Below are positions 40,623 to 45,951 of a DNA stretch of 64,000 nucleotides, piece by piece. Position numbers and translations under genes: made by a program. The notes beneath the pieces are model-generated. The model was given only the letters and a program-made list of their open reading frames with translations. It was not told where the DNA came from and ran no database searches. The stretch lies in sequence record OR924452. One strand, written 5' to 3'. Each line of letters begins with the position of its first letter. Positions within the stretch are counted from its first letter, which is position 1. Source of the stretch: Escherichia phage 241.

Positions 40623-40650
40623 GTTTGTCTCTCCCAATAAATTAAGGGGA

Positions 40651-40675
40651 AGTATACCTTCCCCTTCTTCAATAA
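40651..40675 (-). promoter_or_regulatory. putative promoter (TTATTGAAG box, 10 nt spacer, TATACT) embedded in a terminator hairpin
   Basis: Minus strand TTATTGAAG-aaggggaagg-TATACT, 28 nt upstream of ATG 40622; hairpin GGGGAAGG-tatac-CTTCCCC. Confidence 0.45.
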
Positions 40676-40684
40676 AATAAATTA

Positions 40685-41035
40685 TTATTCAGTACAAGCT
40701 CGACCAAGTTCAGTCAGGCGGTAGAATGTTACTTCTGATTTCGGCCAATGCTTATACTCTTCAGAGTCATCATGAACCATAGTGAACGCAGGTTCGATCA
40801 GACCTTTAGATAATAATGATTGCCCTGAACGTGTATCCCACGGATCACCTTTTACAGAACGAAACCCACCAGCAATCGGAGGGGCATGGAATGTCCATAC
40901 TGTCTTGCCCTTTTCATTCGTCCAAGACTTCGGATTGAAATACCAATGACAAAGGCGTCGATCATCATGGGTTTCAAAATTCAGCATTCCCAGAAGGACA
41001 CAGAGTTGATGTCCTGTGATTCTTGGCTTTTTCAT
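40685..41035 (-). CDS. hypothetical protein (116 aa)
   Basis: ORF. Confidence 0.45.
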   Translation of the reverse strand: MKKPRITGHQLCVLLGMLNFETHDDRRLCHWYFNPKSWTNEKGKTVWTFHAPPIAGGFRSVKGDPWDTRSGQSLLSKGLIEPAFTMVHDDSEEYKHWPKSEVTFYRLTELGRACTE

Positions 41036-41364
41036 AAGATCCCCAAGTCAGTAAGGTAACGATAAGACAGGACTACAGATAGAAATCCAATTAACATCCA
41101 AGACGACAGGATAGGCTTGCAATTTAGCGTAGTCTTTCCATTGGGTATGTTGGGACTTCCAGTAATAACAACCGAATCCGTTTTAGCTCTCAACGTCATG
41201 ACAGAACCCATGAGAATGATTGGGCGCACATAATGTCCGTCGCGATTGCGCTTTACAATACATGGTGAAGAAAATCGCAGGAACGGATCACCGCTTTTAT
41301 AACCGAACAACTCGACCTTTTCTATTTCTTCGGGAACCTTTTGTCCAGGAAAGAATATTCTCAT
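41032..41364 (-). CDS. hypothetical protein (110 aa)
   Basis: ORF. Confidence 0.4.
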
Positions 41365-41921
41365 AATATGATTCCTAAATTTGTGTATAACAATTCAGCT
41401 AGAGTAACAGGTCGTTTGAATTGTTCCCAGCTGCAGTTCAGATATTCACGTTCTTCGCGGATCTTTTCGTGAAGATGTCCATGGATATTATACGCCCAAC
41501 GATCTAATTGATACGGAACGTGTGTAGTCAGAATCCGACCGACAGAAGTATCCCGCTCATACATGGCACCAAAGGATGTAATCCAGCCCTCCAGATACAA
41601 CCGCATTAACATTTTGAAACTGTCGTGGTTGCCCTGTGCCACCCTGATGATAAAGTTCGGACGCCATTCATCGGGAACGGGGCGGCGCTTGAACTCATCA
41701 ATGTTCCGCTTGGCTCCTTCGCGCATCAGGCGTATGAACCCCTCAGCGCCGATAAAGCAGATGTCCCCCGCCAGTTCAAGGACATCCCGAGATTTCAGCC
41801 CTTGGAATATGCTGTCTATAACCGCAGCATCATGGGATTCTTGAGTATCGAATCCACGAGGTTTAAAGACTTTTTTATGCCCGAGGTGAGTGTCACCAAG
41901 GTACTTGACAATTCCTGCCAT
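41361..41921 (-). CDS. calcineurin-like metallophosphoesterase
   Basis: GDTHLGH ... GNHD ... HGHLHE motifs. Confidence 0.6.
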
Positions 41922-42388
41922 CAGATTCTTTCCTTCTCGGAGATACGGTCATGTGCGTTCTTTAACATTGCGTCCGACCAGTTAGACCAATCGAATACAT
42001 TAATAGAACTCACACCGTTATACAAATCCAATATAGTGGGAGAGAGCTGAATATTTAGAGCGCAAGGATCATCACTTTCAACGACCTTCAACCAAAATAA
42101 TTTTTTGTCTAGTAATTCGCGGGAGATACGTCTATACTTGGTAGCAGCTTCTTCACACCACCTTTCTAAGATCATCATCAATTCCCTTTCGATCCCAAAC
42201 CGAAACTCTGGTGTATTGGGTAAGCCGTGATAAGCAGACTTGAATCGATATTCCGTGACTTCATTTAATCGTGATATTAAGGGAACGACGAAACACGTTT
42301 GGAACTCATATTTCCAAGCTCTTTCGAGAACACTAATAATCTCATCACGTTCACATTGACTTAATTTCATTATGGCCTCCTCATCCAT
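41921..42388 (-). CDS. hypothetical protein (155 aa)
   Basis: ORF. Confidence 0.45.
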
Positions 42389-42711
42389 TCTAATATTGGG
42401 ATGCTTACAAACCCTTTATGCCAGCGGTGAGGTTTATGGCCTCTGTTGTGCTCCAACAAACAAGTATCTGGAGGAACACTGAAATGGATACCATCGATAT
42501 CGTAATAATTCCCGTCGATAAGAGTGTACACATGCCCTTCAATCTGGCTGTAATGAATCTCCGCTTGCGGATAAACGTGTTTGAGAACCAGGGCGACTTG
42601 ATAGCACTTCCCGTTCTTTCCCACATACTCAACATCCACCTGTTGTGGGAAAATGTCCTTGATCAGATTTATCAATATGGTGATATCATTCACCACGACA
42701 GATGGTTTCAT
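42370..42711 (-). CDS. hypothetical protein (113 aa)
   Basis: ORF. Confidence 0.45.
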   Translation of the reverse strand: MKPSVVVNDITILINLIKDIFPQQVDVEYVGKNGKCYQVALVLKHVYPQAEIHYSQIEGHVYTLIDGNYYDIDGIHFSVPPDTCLLEHNRGHKPHRWHKGFVSIPILEWMRRP

Positions 42712-42724
42712 CTTCTCATCTCAC

Positions 42725-43387
42725 CTATGATAACTCATAGCGATGGCGGGTACATGCAGGGCAATTACAGTCTTTTCTCAAAATTGGCATTTCACACCAC
42801 GTCATCAAACCATGTATTGGAGACATGTGGTGATAAAACCATGATTTTTTGAGACTAATCAAAGGATATAAAATTTCAATTGGCCTTTCCCCGTCTCTTG
42901 TCATCATATTGTATCCTTCGATGACCTTATTGAAAGCTGGGATCCAGTGGATCGCGTCGTCCCCGTTGACATATGCCAATATGTATGTGGGAGGCAAACT
43001 CCGGCCTTTAAATTGTGTGTTTAATAACCATATCGGGGCTTGTGCTAAACACGCACGAAACCCGCCGTCCGGCACGTGAATGCTACTAATCGGTTCTTGG
43101 TGATGAGTCCAACGATGCATAAGAAGCGGAGCATTCTTGTTGATCCAATTATAAATTTTATTTCGCGCCCAATTCTCACGTTTGGATTTGAAATTATTAT
43201 TTTCAAGATGGCAATACACAGTATGAACCGAATAACCTTTCGATAATAACCAAACCAACATGTATGTGCTATCCACGCCGCCTGACCAAAACAATGTCAC
43301 TTCTTGATTATTTTCCGGCAAAGGTGCATCCCCTTGAAGGACACGGTACACAAATTCACAATCAGATACAGAGACAACGATTTCCAT
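42725..43387 (-). CDS. PP-loop ATP pyrophosphatase, QueC-like
   Basis: SGGVDST PP-loop near the N-terminus; C-terminal Cys cluster WCEMPILRKDCNCPACTRHR resembling the QueC zinc site; about 220 aa. Confidence 0.5.
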   Translation of the reverse strand: MEIVVSVSDCEFVYRVLQGDAPLPENNQEVTLFWSGGVDSTYMLVWLLSKGYSVHTVYCHLENNNFKSKRENWARNKIYNWINKNAPLLMHRWTHHQEPISSIHVPDGGFRACLAQAPIWLLNTQFKGRSLPPTYILAYVNGDDAIHWIPAFNKVIEGYNMMTRDGERPIEILYPLISLKKSWFYHHMSPIHGLMTWCEMPILRKDCNCPACTRHRYELS

Positions 43388-43710
43388 TAAATTATTCCCC
43401 TCAAAGAGTCATTGATTCTACGCAATTCGTTTTCCACCTTTATCTTCATATTTTTGTCGTCGTTCACGAAAATCATTTTATCTAAATCTTCGCCATTAAT
43501 CTTTGTATAAAAATAAATGTCATGCTCAAAGAAAATCGTTTTTCCAACAGAACGCATGGCAAAGAATGTCGCAATAGTTCTCGATAATGGCTTGAACTTA
43601 ATAGCATTAAAACGCAAAGCCTGATATAGGGGTTTTAATGTTCCCAGTCTGATACAGTGCTGAATGATTTCTTGTTCTTTCATCCCATTGTCCGAGTGAC
43701 GGGGTTTCAT
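43387..43710 (-). CDS. hypothetical protein (107 aa)
   Basis: ORF. Confidence 0.4.
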   Translation of the reverse strand: MKPRHSDNGMKEQEIIQHCIRLGTLKPLYQALRFNAIKFKPLSRTIATFFAMRSVGKTIFFEHDIYFYTKINGEDLDKMIFVNDDKNMKIKVENELRRINDSLRGII

Positions 43711-43781
43711 CGGAAACCCCCTATGTTTGTTGGTTAAACAATGATACTTTAGTCAAGATATAGAAAAGCCCCTTTCGGGGC

Positions 43782-44072
43782 TTATTCTTCATCAGATTTG
43801 AAAAGGTTCCATCGGCCTATTCCATACCATTCTCCAATATTGTTGGAGTAGCGGGTTGTCCTAACTCCACCGATTTCGTACCCCCATTTGAAGAAACTCC
43901 ATCTTTCCTTTAGGGTGGGTGGTTTATTTCCGGTTGCCAAGGAGCAAGCTGTAAGCCAACGTGCGATACTAATGGCTTGAAAAATTGGATGAATAAACGA
44001 ATAATACACAACACTCAGAGTTATAATGACGAAGACGCATGTTGTAATCACCCCGACAATTTCAAAGAACAT
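43782..44072 (-). CDS. small membrane protein (96 aa)
   Basis: GGGGG RBS; hydrophobic helices. Confidence 0.4.
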   Translation of the reverse strand: MFFEIVGVITTCVFVIITLSVVYYSFIHPIFQAISIARWLTACSLATGNKPPTLKERWSFFKWGYEIGGVRTTRYSNNIGEWYGIGRWNLFKSDEE

Positions 44073-44146
44073 TTATAACCCCCAATATTGAACACACACT
44101 ATGATGAACGTTGTGATCGTGAATACCCAGGAGAAGATAGAAAGTT

Positions 44147-44779
44147 TCATTCTTCTACCTTTAGCCCCATCAGGTCTTCCATGGTCTTCTGAATACGAAG
44201 CCAATCAAGAGCAGCGTCATAACGAGGATCATGATAGACCATGCCTTCCAGTTCCCAAGCCTTGATACCAGCATAACGATCCTGTTGCCCAACGCCTTTC
44301 AGCCAGCTCACGATGTCGAAGGTGTGATGGTAATCCCAAGGCTCGTTGGAGTCCTGCTTACATGTCACCTCAATGATATGTTGGGCCTTGCGGAGATCAA
44401 ACAAGTTTCGGTCACACCAGTCAACCGAGCGCGGGTCTATCCCAAGACGATGACAACCCTTGCGGATTTCATCGGCCAGCTGGAAGATAGAGGTGTCCTG
44501 ATCGGTCGGGTACAGGCTGACAGCGCGAGCAGCATCACACGGGTTTCGCTTACCCGTACCCAACCACCATTCAACAGTCCCCTGATCCTTGACGCGGCCA
44601 AGTTTAGTCTGCTCTTTGACATCCAACTTTATGAACGTCGTTCGCTCTTCAACGAGTTGCTGAAGAGTGTAGCGTTTGGTCAGGTCGGCGATAGTATGCG
44701 CCCAGGATAACATAATAGCATCGTCCCAGCGCCCCAGAGTCTCGCTATCGGCGACAGCCAAGAAATTAGATTTATACAT
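44147..44779 (-). CDS. dexA: DEDD-type 3'-5' exonuclease, DexA-like
   Basis: AVADSETLG, TVEWWLG and YHDPRYDA parallel T4 DexA FDFETMG, TIEWWKN and AHDSIHDCA. Confidence 0.65.
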   Translation of the reverse strand: MYKSNFLAVADSETLGRWDDAIMLSWAHTIADLTKRYTLQQLVEERTTFIKLDVKEQTKLGRVKDQGTVEWWLGTGKRNPCDAARAVSLYPTDQDTSIFQLADEIRKGCHRLGIDPRSVDWCDRNLFDLRKAQHIIEVTCKQDSNEPWDYHHTFDIVSWLKGVGQQDRYAGIKAWELEGMVYHDPRYDAALDWLRIQKTMEDLMGLKVEE

Positions 44780-45116
44780 CGGTTTCCCCCGCTTTCTCTA
44801 AAAGAAGTTTCAAAGGATATGTCCCACAAGCGGTGGCATATTCAACTCTGAAATATGAATTATCGTTCATGGCGAAATTGCGATGAGGAAAATATTCACC
44901 ATCATCAAAACCACCCATCCCTCCACCGACGCGATATTGTTTCAATTCTACTTCGCCACCGTAACGCAGTTGGGCGTAGAGACCGATAGGAGCGCGAACA
45001 TAATGCTCCAGCCACACCCAATTACCGTCATGTAGACGAGTGGGCAAAAATGCAAACCGTACCTTGGGATGAAGAACGGCTTTAGCCAACATTTCTTCCG
45101 TCACTTCAGATTTCAT
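44772..45116 (-). CDS. hypothetical protein (114 aa)
   Basis: ORF. Confidence 0.4.
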   Translation of the reverse strand: MKSEVTEEMLAKAVLHPKVRFAFLPTRLHDGNWVWLEHYVRAPIGLYAQLRYGGEVELKQYRVGGGMGGFDDGEYFPHRNFAMNDNSYFRVEYATACGTYPLKLLLEKAGETDV

Positions 45117-45718
45117 CCGATGCTTTCCTCTTCGATGACGTCTTCTTCATTAGGAACAACAGAGATCCCAAAGTCGATCATTTGAGAGAGTTCTTGTAAA
45201 TCCTTTTCGAATCCATCCCCTTCCCGAATATAGAATACTGGGACCACGCGGCGGCGAGTATCTTCAAAGATGGTTTCGGCGATTTTGTTAATCTGGCCTA
45301 CCACATGTGTGAGATTCAAGCCACCAATACCACAACCGATGGCGGGCAAACCGACATAGACAGTTTCATCAGCTTTGGCTTCAACGATATCATGAATTTG
45401 TTCAAACATGATCTGGACTGAGCTAATGATAGATGGCATGCGAGCATTGGGACCTGGGTAAAATTGAGTATACAAATTGAATCCCCAGACACCAGTGTCA
45501 TGATCAAACGCATAGGACATGTTCCCCAAGCGCTGTTCCGGACCACGTTCATCTAATTGGTCGGCGCGGTAAATCTCTGGGAAATTCAATCGAACGTGAT
45601 TGGCGATACCCGCGCCCATTACAGACCAACAATTTGCGCCGTGAGCAAAGGCATTGATAAGATTGAAACTCGTGGCGGCTTTTAATAAATCGCCATTTGT
45701 GATAATATAAGTGGTCAT
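45113..45718 (-). CDS. macro-domain protein (ADP-ribose binding/processing)
   Basis: ITNGDLL...INAFAHGANCWSVMGAGIANH typical of macro domains; start set at ATG 45718 (ATGA coupling). Confidence 0.6.
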   Translation of the reverse strand: MTTYIITNGDLLKAATSFNLINAFAHGANCWSVMGAGIANHVRLNFPEIYRADQLDERGPEQRLGNMSYAFDHDTGVWGFNLYTQFYPGPNARMPSIISSVQIMFEQIHDIVEAKADETVYVGLPAIGCGIGGLNLTHVVGQINKIAETIFEDTRRRVVPVFYIREGDGFEKDLQELSQMIDFGISVVPNEEDVIEEESIG

Positions 45719-45951
45719 GCGTAACGTCTCCATTGTATAATTTCGTTGTCGACACAACTGACCTGAATGATACACATATTCTGGCGATGGTCGGTGAGTG
45801 TAATAATAAAACTGTCTGGTTGTGACATGACACGATTAACAGATATCCCGCGCGACATCAAACGAAAGCAAATTTCTTGATACAAACGTTGCATATATCC
45901 TGAAACAGAAGCCGATTCATATGCGCGTTCAAATTCGTATAATTCGTTCAT
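45715..45951 (-). CDS. hypothetical protein (78 aa)
   Basis: ORF. Confidence 0.4.
   Translation of the reverse strand: MNELYEFERAYESASVSGYMQRLYQEICFRLMSRGISVNRVMSQPDSFIITLTDHRQNMCIIQVSCVDNEIIQWRRYA

Follow-up and report, generated by a model that had tools for sequence, protein, structure and literature searches.

We analyzed a gene on the minus strand (42725..43387) of a 64,000-nucleotide stretch of the genome of Escherichia phage 241 (sequence record OR924452; this whole stretch is referred to as the window). The gene encodes a 220-amino-acid PP-loop ATPase that resembles QueC, the enzyme that converts 7-carboxy-7-deazaguanine (CDG) to 7-cyano-7-deazaguanine (preQ0). Judging from its sequence, a protein that is missing the residues and the partner genes for making preQ0 almost certainly carries out a different ligation reaction. 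The reading that we favor, with somewhat better than even confidence, is that it is an active, minimal enzyme of the QueC/Cap9 type that would catalyze a single amide-forming ligation on a substrate other than that of the CDG-to-preQ0 reaction. The gene was already annotated and assigned to a PHROG, and its status as an orphan with a probably different function was published in 2019 (Hutinet et al. 2019). New here are the residue-level demonstration that the canonical catalytic signature is absent, the Cap9-like features, and the strong purifying selection. Also new are the size of the clade to which the gene belongs, the signature of that clade, its occurrence almost only on phage-type contigs, and its recurrent placement among genes for replication and nucleotide metabolism.

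The open reading frame (ORF) starts with ATG, was present in the ORF list, and was corroborated by RefSeq, PHROG, tblastn and the ratio of nonsynonymous to synonymous substitution rates (dN/dS). It corresponds to Vi01_023 (YP_004327394) of phage Vi01, which is named "QueC-like queuosine biosynthesis" in RefSeq and belongs to PHROG 1550; orthologues in other records are labeled 'alpha hydrolase' or 'hypothetical protein'. The window is from a Vi01-like Kuttervirus (Ackermannviridae). The region has matches in 195 phage records, with identities of 99.9% for Salmonella phage PS5 and 99.3% for Vi01. Using tblastn, we found the gene in 201 phage records, including divergent Ackermannviridae: Klebsiella 0507-KN2-1 and Serratia IME250 (~55% identity), Erwinia phiEa2809 (Nezavisimistyvirus, 37%), Serratia 2050H1 (Miltonvirus, 31%) and a Vibrio member (24%). 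The jumbo phage Noxifer likewise has a QueC-like gene. The first-pass annotation, made from the sequence alone, had placed the gene inside an accessory gene block. Its neighbors are indeed variable small ORFs of unknown function, but conservation of the gene itself across the Ackermannviridae is more like that of a core gene than of an accessory one. When compared with orthologues of ~85% nucleotide identity, dN/dS was 0.024-0.032 (dS ~1.2, dN ~0.03), and the ORF is therefore a real gene under strong purifying selection. The product is 100% identical to Sajous1 gp66, for which a proteomic survey by mass spectrometry recorded a single detection (PMC10892097).

Searches with the single sequence recovered only the PP-loop. 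Pfam QueC (PF06508) matched residues 33-64 with 23.9 bits (gathering cutoff 22 bits). The QueC equivalog model of NCBIfam, TIGR00364, scored 18.4 bits against a curated cutoff of 150.3 bits, which leaves the protein outside the equivalog, and PADLOC returned only its generic QueC model (25 bits, PP-loop only). No PDB sequence matched below E 0.09 by phmmer. Homology to QueC along the whole protein became apparent only with family profiles. PHROG 1550 ('QueC-like queuosine biosynthesis') matched residues 1-219, the full length of the protein, with E 5.2e-78, which places it in that family. An exhaustive search gave 1421 representative clusters with E<1e-3, of which 636 had E<1e-10; almost all were proteins of ~200-300 amino acids that matched end to end. 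We used two profiles, one of 21 close homologues (A1) and one of 42 diverse relatives picked from the exhaustive search (A2). Profile A2 aligned along the full length of B. subtilis QueC (3bl5; E 1.5e-10), including all four Cys, and also matched Cap9 (9nto) at E 5e-9 and the QueC structure 2pg3 at E 2e-8. The next family was argininosuccinate synthase (E 1.7e-3), and QatC (9vlk) was reached at E 0.45, over the Cys motif only. Alignment of A2 to QueC by hhalign was also full length (probability 96.4%, E 1e-9), and all 42 of the sampled relatives matched PF06508, which was their top Pfam family.

These results establish membership in two nested groups. The SGGxDS loop and a Rossmann-like fold model place the protein in the superfamily of PP-loop N-type ATP pyrophosphatases (adenine nucleotide alpha hydrolases), and the score above the Pfam gathering threshold together with full-length profile homology places it in the QueC superfamily (PF06508). 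In the AlphaFold2 model (predicted local distance difference test score, pLDDT, 84; predicted template modeling score 0.85), a strand at residues 29-33 is followed by a helix at 38-49, and the top fold matches were all PP-loop enzymes. The family proposed at first pass holds, in that QueC and Cap9 were the best matches by sequence profile and by fold and the zinc site is conserved; a profile search against QueC, QatC/Cap9 and other PP-loop families, which had been suggested as the check, did not lead to an unrelated PP-loop family. The Kuttervirus proteins have a conserved N-terminal extension of ~27 amino acids (helix 9-17, pLDDT ~90) that is missing from most relatives.

Within the QueC superfamily, the relatives form what is, on sequence grounds, a distinct branch seen almost only on phage-type contigs. 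A scan of genome_contigs returned at least one partial match among the matches listed, and this is weak evidence for absence from cells. The query and 151 relatives have the signature WSGGxDST / NN..K...E / Q / Y...DDA..[YFW] / FPL...K / CE...C..C..C. The phage 'QueC singletons' described previously (PHROG 1550; ECML-4 YP_009101458, SFP10 YP_004895194, Vi01 YP_004327394; Hutinet et al. 2019) are the same family. In the viral structure library BFVD, phage singletons (Noxifer, RSF1, Vibrio YC) outranked canonical phage QueC and Gat-QueC. No phage-singleton cluster was discussed among the clusters analyzed in a 2026 survey of PF06508, and we found no characterization of the function of the clade in the literature that we searched.

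We mapped motif positions using alignments to QueC (HMMER and hhalign) and an alignment of 151 family sequences. The PP-loop, S35-G-G-V-D-S-T41 (43265..43285, minus strand), is the pyrophosphate-binding motif of N-type ATP pyrophosphatases and is preceded by W34, which is typical of the family. It aligns with SGGQDS of QueC and SGGMDS of Cap9, and G37, D39 and S40 are invariant in the 151 sequences. The predicted zinc ribbon, C198-E199-x7-C207-x-C209-x2-C212 (42752..42796, minus strand), has all four Cys aligned with the zinc Cys of 3bl5, 2pg3 and Cap9 9nto, and conservation is high (C198 100%, E199 97% or 147 of 151, C207 97%, C209 and C212 99%). The spacing C-x8-C-x-C-x2-C is one residue shorter between the second and third Cys than the C-x8-C-x2-C-x2-C of QueC; the canonical x2 (CxxC) spacing is found in 111 of the 151 family sequences, and CxC in Kuttervirus. 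The C-terminal four-Cys motif of the QueC superfamily is present, and a metal site is predicted. Both features had been noticed at first pass as an SGGVDST loop and a QueC-like Cys cluster, and they fall at residues 35-41 and at Cys198, 207, 209 and 212, respectively. A conserved Lys is also retained: the segment Y174-P-L-x3-K180-K181 (42845..42868, minus strand; family consensus FPLxKxKK) aligns K181 with the Lys of QueC (E. coli K165) and with that of the PF(x)4K motif in Cap9.

The remaining motifs differ from those of canonical QueC, whose signature comprises SGGxDS, YxQxHxxE, VPxRN, YPDC, a conserved Lys and C(x)8CxxCxxC (Libby et al. 2026, PMC13329287). In E. coli QueC, the substitutions Y35A, R99A, Y131A and Y189A abolish formation of preQ0 and queuosine, and Y131F is partly active (PMC13329287). 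In the place of YxQxHxxE, the phage family has the motif Y58-x2-[IL]61-x-N63-N64-x2-K67-x3-E71 (43175..43216, minus strand), with only the Glu common to both (N63 91%, N64 94%, E71 99% in the 151 sequences). The query reads Y58-C-H-L-E-N-N-N-F-K-S-K-R-E71, and E. coli Y35 aligns with I/L61; the Q and H are not kept, and the family has its own N63-N64 insertion and K67 there. The position of the Arg in VPxRN (E. coli R99; the nucleobase-stacking R86 in Cap9) is taken by Q116 (43040..43042, minus strand; 93% of the family), in the query sequence L114-A-Q116-A-P. The motif Y139-V-N-G-D143-D144-A-I-H-W148-I-P150 (42938..42973, minus strand; family consensus GYVMNDDAISY[LI]), located with hhalign, contains D143 (100%), Y139 (97%) and an aromatic residue (Y/F/W) at position 148 in 141 of 151 sequences. 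W148 aligns with the Tyr of YPDC (E. coli Y131), and the P-D-C is missing; position 150 is variable in the family, is Pro here, and provides no Cys. Finally, QueC chains read 'TCYNG' at the first zinc Cys, where the phage protein has C198-E199. We take the Tyr after this Cys to be E. coli Y189, by inference from the description in the paper. By this mapping, three of the four residues essential for preQ0 synthesis (Y35, R99 and Y189) would be replaced, by I/L61, Q116 and E199, respectively.

Compared with canonical QueC (PF06508 cluster 1, TIGR00364; 3bl5, 2pg3), the phage protein thus has full-length collinear homology and retains the PP-loop, the zinc Cys, the conserved Lys, the Glu of YxQxHxxE and the aromatic of YPDC, but it differs in the three essential residues, in the lack of P-D-C, in a 3-residue NN insertion after strand 2, and in an equivalog score far below threshold. 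Its 'CE' at the first zinc Cys, in place of the 'CY' with the essential Tyr in QueC, is shared with Cap9 of type IV CBASS (cyclic oligonucleotide-based anti-phage signaling system; PDB 9nto_B). The two proteins also share a minimal single-domain architecture, in which a PP-loop core is followed by a C-terminal zinc ribbon, as well as the SGGxDS loop and a conserved Lys after a P-[FL] strand. However, identity to Cap9 is only 16-18%, and the Cap9 motifs Y/FxQ(x)5E, RN and H(x)4YxDC are replaced in the phage family by hxNNxxKxxxE, an invariant Gln and NDDAxx[YFW]. In the structure of Cap9 with CdnD, the deazaguanine is held by Y115, D117 and R86, the YxDC and RN positions (bioRxiv 10.1101/2025.04.06.647259). 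R86 and D117 are not conserved in the phage family, and of the three contacts only the aromatic survives.

The genes that would be expected to accompany preQ0 synthesis were not found. No TGT/DpdA, FolE, QueD or QueE is annotated among the 208 coding sequences of Vi01. We also searched six-frame ORFs of at least 50 amino acids from Vi01 and the window by phmmer (--max) with DpdA, FolE, QueD, QueE and Gat-QueC queries from phage 9g; there was nothing below E 0.3, in searches with single-sequence queries that could miss very remote homologues. The absence of queD, queE, folE and dpdA from the vicinity, which had been noted at first pass, therefore holds and extends to the whole Vi01 genome, by annotation and by phmmer, and in Vi01 the gene has no genomic association with these genes. 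Hutinet et al. (2019) reached a consistent result in a survey with PSI-BLAST and HHpred, and their supplement lists Vi01 YP_004327394, ECML-4, SFP10, CBA120, PhaxI and others in the QueC column only. On the basis of sequence similarity networks, those authors called the Vi01 protein a "QueC singleton" that is probably another subfamily.

The expected product has not been reported either, and there is no report of deazaguanine in the DNA of these phages. Every phage known to have 7-deazaguanine DNA encodes a protein of the DpdA family (Cui et al. 2023, PMC10516641). Liquid chromatography-mass spectrometry (LC-MS) of DNA from ViI, CBA120, CBA6 and 1.255.O detected dA, dG, dC, dT and a single fifth nucleoside, 5-(2-aminoethoxy)methyl-2'-deoxyuridine (5-NeOmdU), which replaces ~40% of thymidines (PMC5889632); the high-performance liquid chromatography traces in that study do not exclude a trace-level modification. 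The first-pass annotation had proposed that the protein complements host preQ0 synthesis for 7-deazaguanine modification of DNA, and had named the absence of deazaguanine from virion DNA, together with the lack of a transglycosylase, as the outcome that would count against it. That is essentially what was found, and the proposal is not supported, given the lack of DpdA or another transglycosylase, the LC-MS data and the residue replacements. A role in the synthesis of 5-NeOmdU was also considered and rejected, since the pathway has been reconstituted from gp67/gp243, gp247 and gp226 without the QueC-like protein (PMC5889632) and the clade reaches far beyond the phages known for 5-NeOmdU. Vi01 has five tRNAs (Met-CAT, Asn-GTT, Gln-TTG, Tyr-GTA and Ser-GCT) at 137231-138560 (L083:37231-38560), outside the window, in a stretch with no annotated features, and the window itself is without tRNA. 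A link to queuosine in tRNA through tRNA-Asn and tRNA-Tyr was rejected, as two of five tRNAs from queuosine families are expected by chance ~25% of the time (hypergeometric estimate).

A pattern scan of IMG/VR gave 79 loci, in which we called and clustered ORFs and which we dereplicated to 50 groups by identity of the QueC-like protein. An SNF2-type helicase (PHROG 62) flanks the gene in 30 of the 50 groups, and 21 of those 30 also have a family-B DNA polymerase of ~1230 amino acids (PHROG 262); in this lineage a NUDIX gene lies downstream. In a second lineage (loci L021, L032, L041 and L057), the gene is found among those for a UvsX-like recombinase, an RNaseH-like exonuclease and a DnaB-like helicase. 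At L056, the two following ORFs have the sizes of topoisomerase II subunits, as judged by size alone. In the Ackermannviridae the gene is always between dexA, with topoisomerase II beyond, and dCMP deaminase; phiEa2809 and 2050H1 have one small gene between the QueC-like gene and the deaminase. Placement of the clade in or beside genes for replication or nucleotide metabolism, in four phage lineages, is suggestive. The QueC-like gene of the window seems to belong to a transcription unit of early or middle expression that lies between dexA/topoisomerase II and dCMP deaminase.

Several variations in these loci were observed as well. In L021 (423-1220 and 8004-8759), and also in L032, there are two divergent QueC-like paralogues ~7 kb apart in the same replication module, where they flank the UvsX, exonuclease and DnaB genes. 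The dCMP deaminase near the QueC-like gene is ~311 amino acids in phiEa2809 and 2050H1 (L089:6531-7472 and L090:6042-6977) compared to 173 in Vi01, which suggests that the longer deaminases carry an extra fused domain. Many members outside the Ackermannviridae (genes in L031, L029, L053 and L040; proteins P0036 and P0098) have C-terminal tails of 100-250 amino acids that are charged, of low complexity and without a detectable domain. We checked the extensions of the longer family members (300-462 amino acids) for 'Rosetta-stone' fusions and recognized no Pfam domain in them. In isolate phages with distant homologues (Noxifer and Vibrio 207E48.1), the neighbors are all hypothetical proteins.

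Taken with the conservation of the PP-loop, D143, K181 and E71 (99-100% in the 151 sequences), dN/dS of ~0.03 and the detection of Sajous1 gp66 by mass spectrometry, the protein is likely to be catalytically competent. Catalysis, one-step ligase chemistry and the class of substrate are features that we infer by analogy. As in QueC and Cap9, the beta and gamma phosphates of ATP would be bound on S35-G-G-x-D39-S40. An oxygen of the substrate, most likely of a carboxylate on a planar molecule stacked on the aromatic at position 148, would attack the alpha-phosphate, forming an acyl-adenylate with release of pyrophosphate, and an amine or ammonia would then displace AMP to give the amide. E199, next to the first zinc Cys as in Cap9, would point to a Cap9-like single amide step and not to the two-step nitrile synthesis of QueC. 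We favor one-step ligation on a substrate other than that of the CDG-to-preQ0 reaction because the Cap9-like Glu replaces the Tyr and the Arg and Asp that read deazaguanine are lost. Because the gene seems to lie in an early or middle unit and its relatives are beside replication and nucleotide-metabolism genes, the target is more likely to be a metabolite of the nucleotide or nucleobase type, or a replication-associated protein, than a tRNA.

There are points that weigh against this reading. The mapping of motifs depends on profile alignments at 20-25% identity, and at the position of R99 the aligners disagree, with HMMER aligning Q116 and hhalign a gap. The altered pocket could still bind CDG or another 7-deazapurine, and a role of E199 as a general base is conjecture. 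Placement among replication genes could equally reflect the timing of early or middle expression. In the 79 viral loci (50 groups) no neighbor is conserved across lineages, the longer family members showed no informative fusion, and our analysis of sequence, context and literature identified no substrate, product or partner. An alternative suggestion at first pass, a QueC-like ligase recruited for a different nucleobase or for anti-defense chemistry, is, as far as a ligase with different chemistry is concerned, compatible with all of the findings; nothing specifically indicates an anti-defense role. At present there is no positive evidence for a particular chemistry or for such a role, and the literature search found no relevant characterized phage PP-loop protein with an anti-defense function.

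A more specific proposal is that PHROG 1550 is the phage counterpart of Cap9 and QatC, both of which were shown in 2025-2026 to be protein-nucleobase ligases. The phage protein would then be a one-step ligase that joins a carboxylated metabolite (possibly host CDG or another planar acid) to an amine of a protein, nucleotide or DNA that takes part in phage replication. We regard this as unlikely. Its narrower form, in which the enzyme adenylates a carboxylated nucleobase, possibly host CDG, and conjugates it to the N-terminal amine of a protein, seems to us rather unlikely; the purpose could be regulation of a replication factor, or pre-empting or poisoning the Qat or type IV CBASS systems. The minimal core of ~190 amino acids resembles Cap9, and Cap9, unlike QueC, also has 'CE' at the first zinc Cys. 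The gene is probably coupled in translation to a small upstream ORF (Vi01_022), and in one distant lineage (22 of the 50 groups) a 120-amino-acid protein is encoded directly upstream whose M-[GA] N-terminus is like the Gly2 acceptor of CdnD and QatB. In contrast, the phage family lacks conservation at the Arg and Asp positions that contact deazaguanine in Cap9; neither the Vi01 annotation nor phmmer revealed a Cap10/TGT-like, CD-NTase or QatA/B/D gene; and PADLOC matched only its generic QueC model, over the PP-loop. The operon context of Cap9 is likewise absent, with no CD-NTase, TGT-like Cap10 or Cap11 in the window or genome, and the gene is that of a lytic myovirus. The small upstream protein is found in one lineage only and is missing in some of its members, the upstream ORF in Kuttervirus starts with MKEQ and not MG or MA, and many proteins in general have Gly or Ala as the second residue. 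QatC (QatABCD, PDB 9vlk) is similar in that it belongs to the QueC family of PP-loop enzymes but has been diverted from preQ0 synthesis; its active site is remodeled and its zinc motif retained. It differs in its size (~400 amino acids, extended at both termini, compared to 220 here), in its distinct motif set, in its insignificant profile match (E 0.45, Cys motif only) and in its gene neighborhood, as no qatA, qatB or qatD accompanies the phage gene.

The ~120-amino-acid upstream protein ('c2'; L076:7434-7796 and 28 other viral loci, for example L042, L046, L054 and L063) is encoded by a gene that directly overlaps the QueC-like gene in the uncultured lineage with the SNF2 helicase and family-B polymerase. 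It has no PHROG match and is not fused to the helicase. Its N-terminal pattern, M-[GA]-x2-Y-x-W-x2-N-P-x2-D-x-L, recalls the Gly2 acceptor of the substrates of Cap9 and QatC; the second residue is Gly or Ala in 26 of 29 sequences. As a general partner of the QueC-like protein 'c2' was rejected, since it occurs in one lineage only and is missing from some members of that lineage and from the Ackermannviridae.

It is quite improbable that the protein modifies bases in nucleic acids in the manner of TilS, ThiI, MnmA or TtuA, by adenylating a base carbonyl in tRNA or phage DNA and exchanging it for an amine or sulfur. There were weak Pfam matches to ThiI and tRNA_Me_trans, the carriers are large phages, many of which have tRNA genes, and the gene is found in a replication module. 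However, the core of ~190 amino acids has no accessory domain for binding RNA or DNA (THUMP or the TilS C-terminal domain), the extensions match no domain, and the isoelectric point of ~7.7 is not strongly basic. No Cys beyond the four of the ribbon is conserved in the 151 family sequences, which argues against persulfide or Fe-S sulfurtransferase chemistry; the conserved Cys or [4Fe-4S] triad of TtuA, NcsA, LarE, ThiI and MnmA is lacking. The reconstitution of 5-NeOmdU synthesis without the QueC-like protein also counts against this alternative.

Very improbable, in our view, is an amidotransferase for a small molecule that is not a nucleobase. One example is a NadE-like enzyme that amidates nicotinic acid adenine dinucleotide or nicotinic acid mononucleotide to rebuild nicotinamide adenine dinucleotide (NAD+) against NAD-depleting defenses; another cofactor step is a second. 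The chemistry equals the first step of QueC, from carboxylate to amide through an adenylate, and pathways that reconstitute NAD are common phage counter-defenses (PMC13464706). On the other hand, NadE-type enzymes scored well below QueC and Cap9 in every comparison, the protein has no NadE motifs, NadE has no zinc ribbon, there are no NAD-salvage partner genes nearby, and NARP1, NARP2 and NARP3 use different enzymes (PMC13464706). Rescue of NAD+ of the NARP type was rejected as having no support.

Salmonella and E. coli have their own QueC, which counts against a phage copy with the same activity. Canonical QueC activity, either boosting host preQ0 and queuosine for tRNA or feeding an unrecognized DNA 7-deazaguanine pathway, is the least probable explanation of all: superfamily membership, an intact predicted zinc site, the RefSeq and PHROG names, CDG available from the host and two of five Vi01 tRNAs (Asn-GTT and Tyr-GTA) in queuosine-modified families are set against three replaced essential residues, a TIGR00364 score far under the cutoff, the absence of DpdA (the signature of deazaguanine-DNA phages), TGT, FolE, QueD and QueE, normal dG in ViI DNA with 5-NeOmdU as the only extra nucleoside (PMC5889632), a tRNA count expected by chance, and the same negative conclusion in Hutinet et al. 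(2019).

For ~200 genomes of Ackermannviridae, many of which belong to candidates for phage therapy or biocontrol, 'queuosine biosynthesis' is probably a misleading gene name, and it could prompt the wrong assumption that these phages have 7-deazaguanine DNA. The finding is modest on its own. The clade is large and strongly constrained, with its own active-site signature, and could reveal further chemistry on the QueC scaffold. If it proved to be the phage counterpart of Cap9 and QatC, this would be the first case of viruses employing the QueC scaffold for conjugation and not for making preQ0, and could serve to control replication factors or to subvert immunity based on deazaguanylation.

In the window, the QueC-like gene lies in a series of seven co-directional genes. 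Directly upstream is Vi01_022 (43387..43683, minus strand; PHROG 9302, function unknown); the PHROG match begins at residue 10 of its longest ORF, in agreement with the RefSeq start. Its TAA stop and the ATG start of the QueC-like gene overlap as TAATG, so that translation of the two genes is probably coupled; a Shine-Dalgarno-like sequence, GAGGGG, precedes the ATG. Directly downstream is a YunG-like gene (42370-42711, minus strand; Pfam Phage_YunG-like, PF24591, E 2e-44), followed by a homologue of Vi01_025 (41921-42388, minus strand; 155 amino acids, PHROG 17979), a metallophosphoesterase gene (41361-41921), a DUF7618 gene (41032-41364, minus strand; PF24594, E 5e-55) and Vi01_028 (40685-41035). 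Terminator-like hairpins on the minus strand, located by consensus scan only, are found just past Vi01_021 (43766..43783) and past Vi01_028 (40644..40666), and are likely to mark the upstream and downstream boundaries, respectively. The seven genes that they bracket would form an operon. In the GenBank records of Mooltan, Matapan and Maynard, the interval 41000-45000 carries an annotated terminator.

A Pfam and PHROG scan of the immediate neighbors in Kuttervirus found only YunG-like, DUF7618, phosphoesterase, a 'phosphatase' PHROG and DexA, none of which was informative. YunG-like and DUF7618 are recently defined phage families of unknown function, and the YunG-like gene is not kept beside the QueC-like gene in Taipeivirus-like relatives (L013). 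The ORF at 41921-42388 is polymorphic for presence or absence among Kuttervirus genomes that are otherwise ~99.5% identical. It is missing in Sajous1, where the YunG-like gene abuts the phosphoesterase gene, and in ~15 of the 25 best-matching records, where the match to 41000-45000 is split in two and reaches only 89% coverage. The 'phosphatase' match (PHROG 335, from residue 14, with no Pfam match) is in the ORF at 45113-45775 (minus strand), whose longest form has a GTG start and 220 amino acids. The RefSeq gene is shorter (Vi01_018, 606 nucleotides), and the true start is probably internal. This ORF overlaps a small ORF by 4 nucleotides on each side, and dexA is one gene further downstream.

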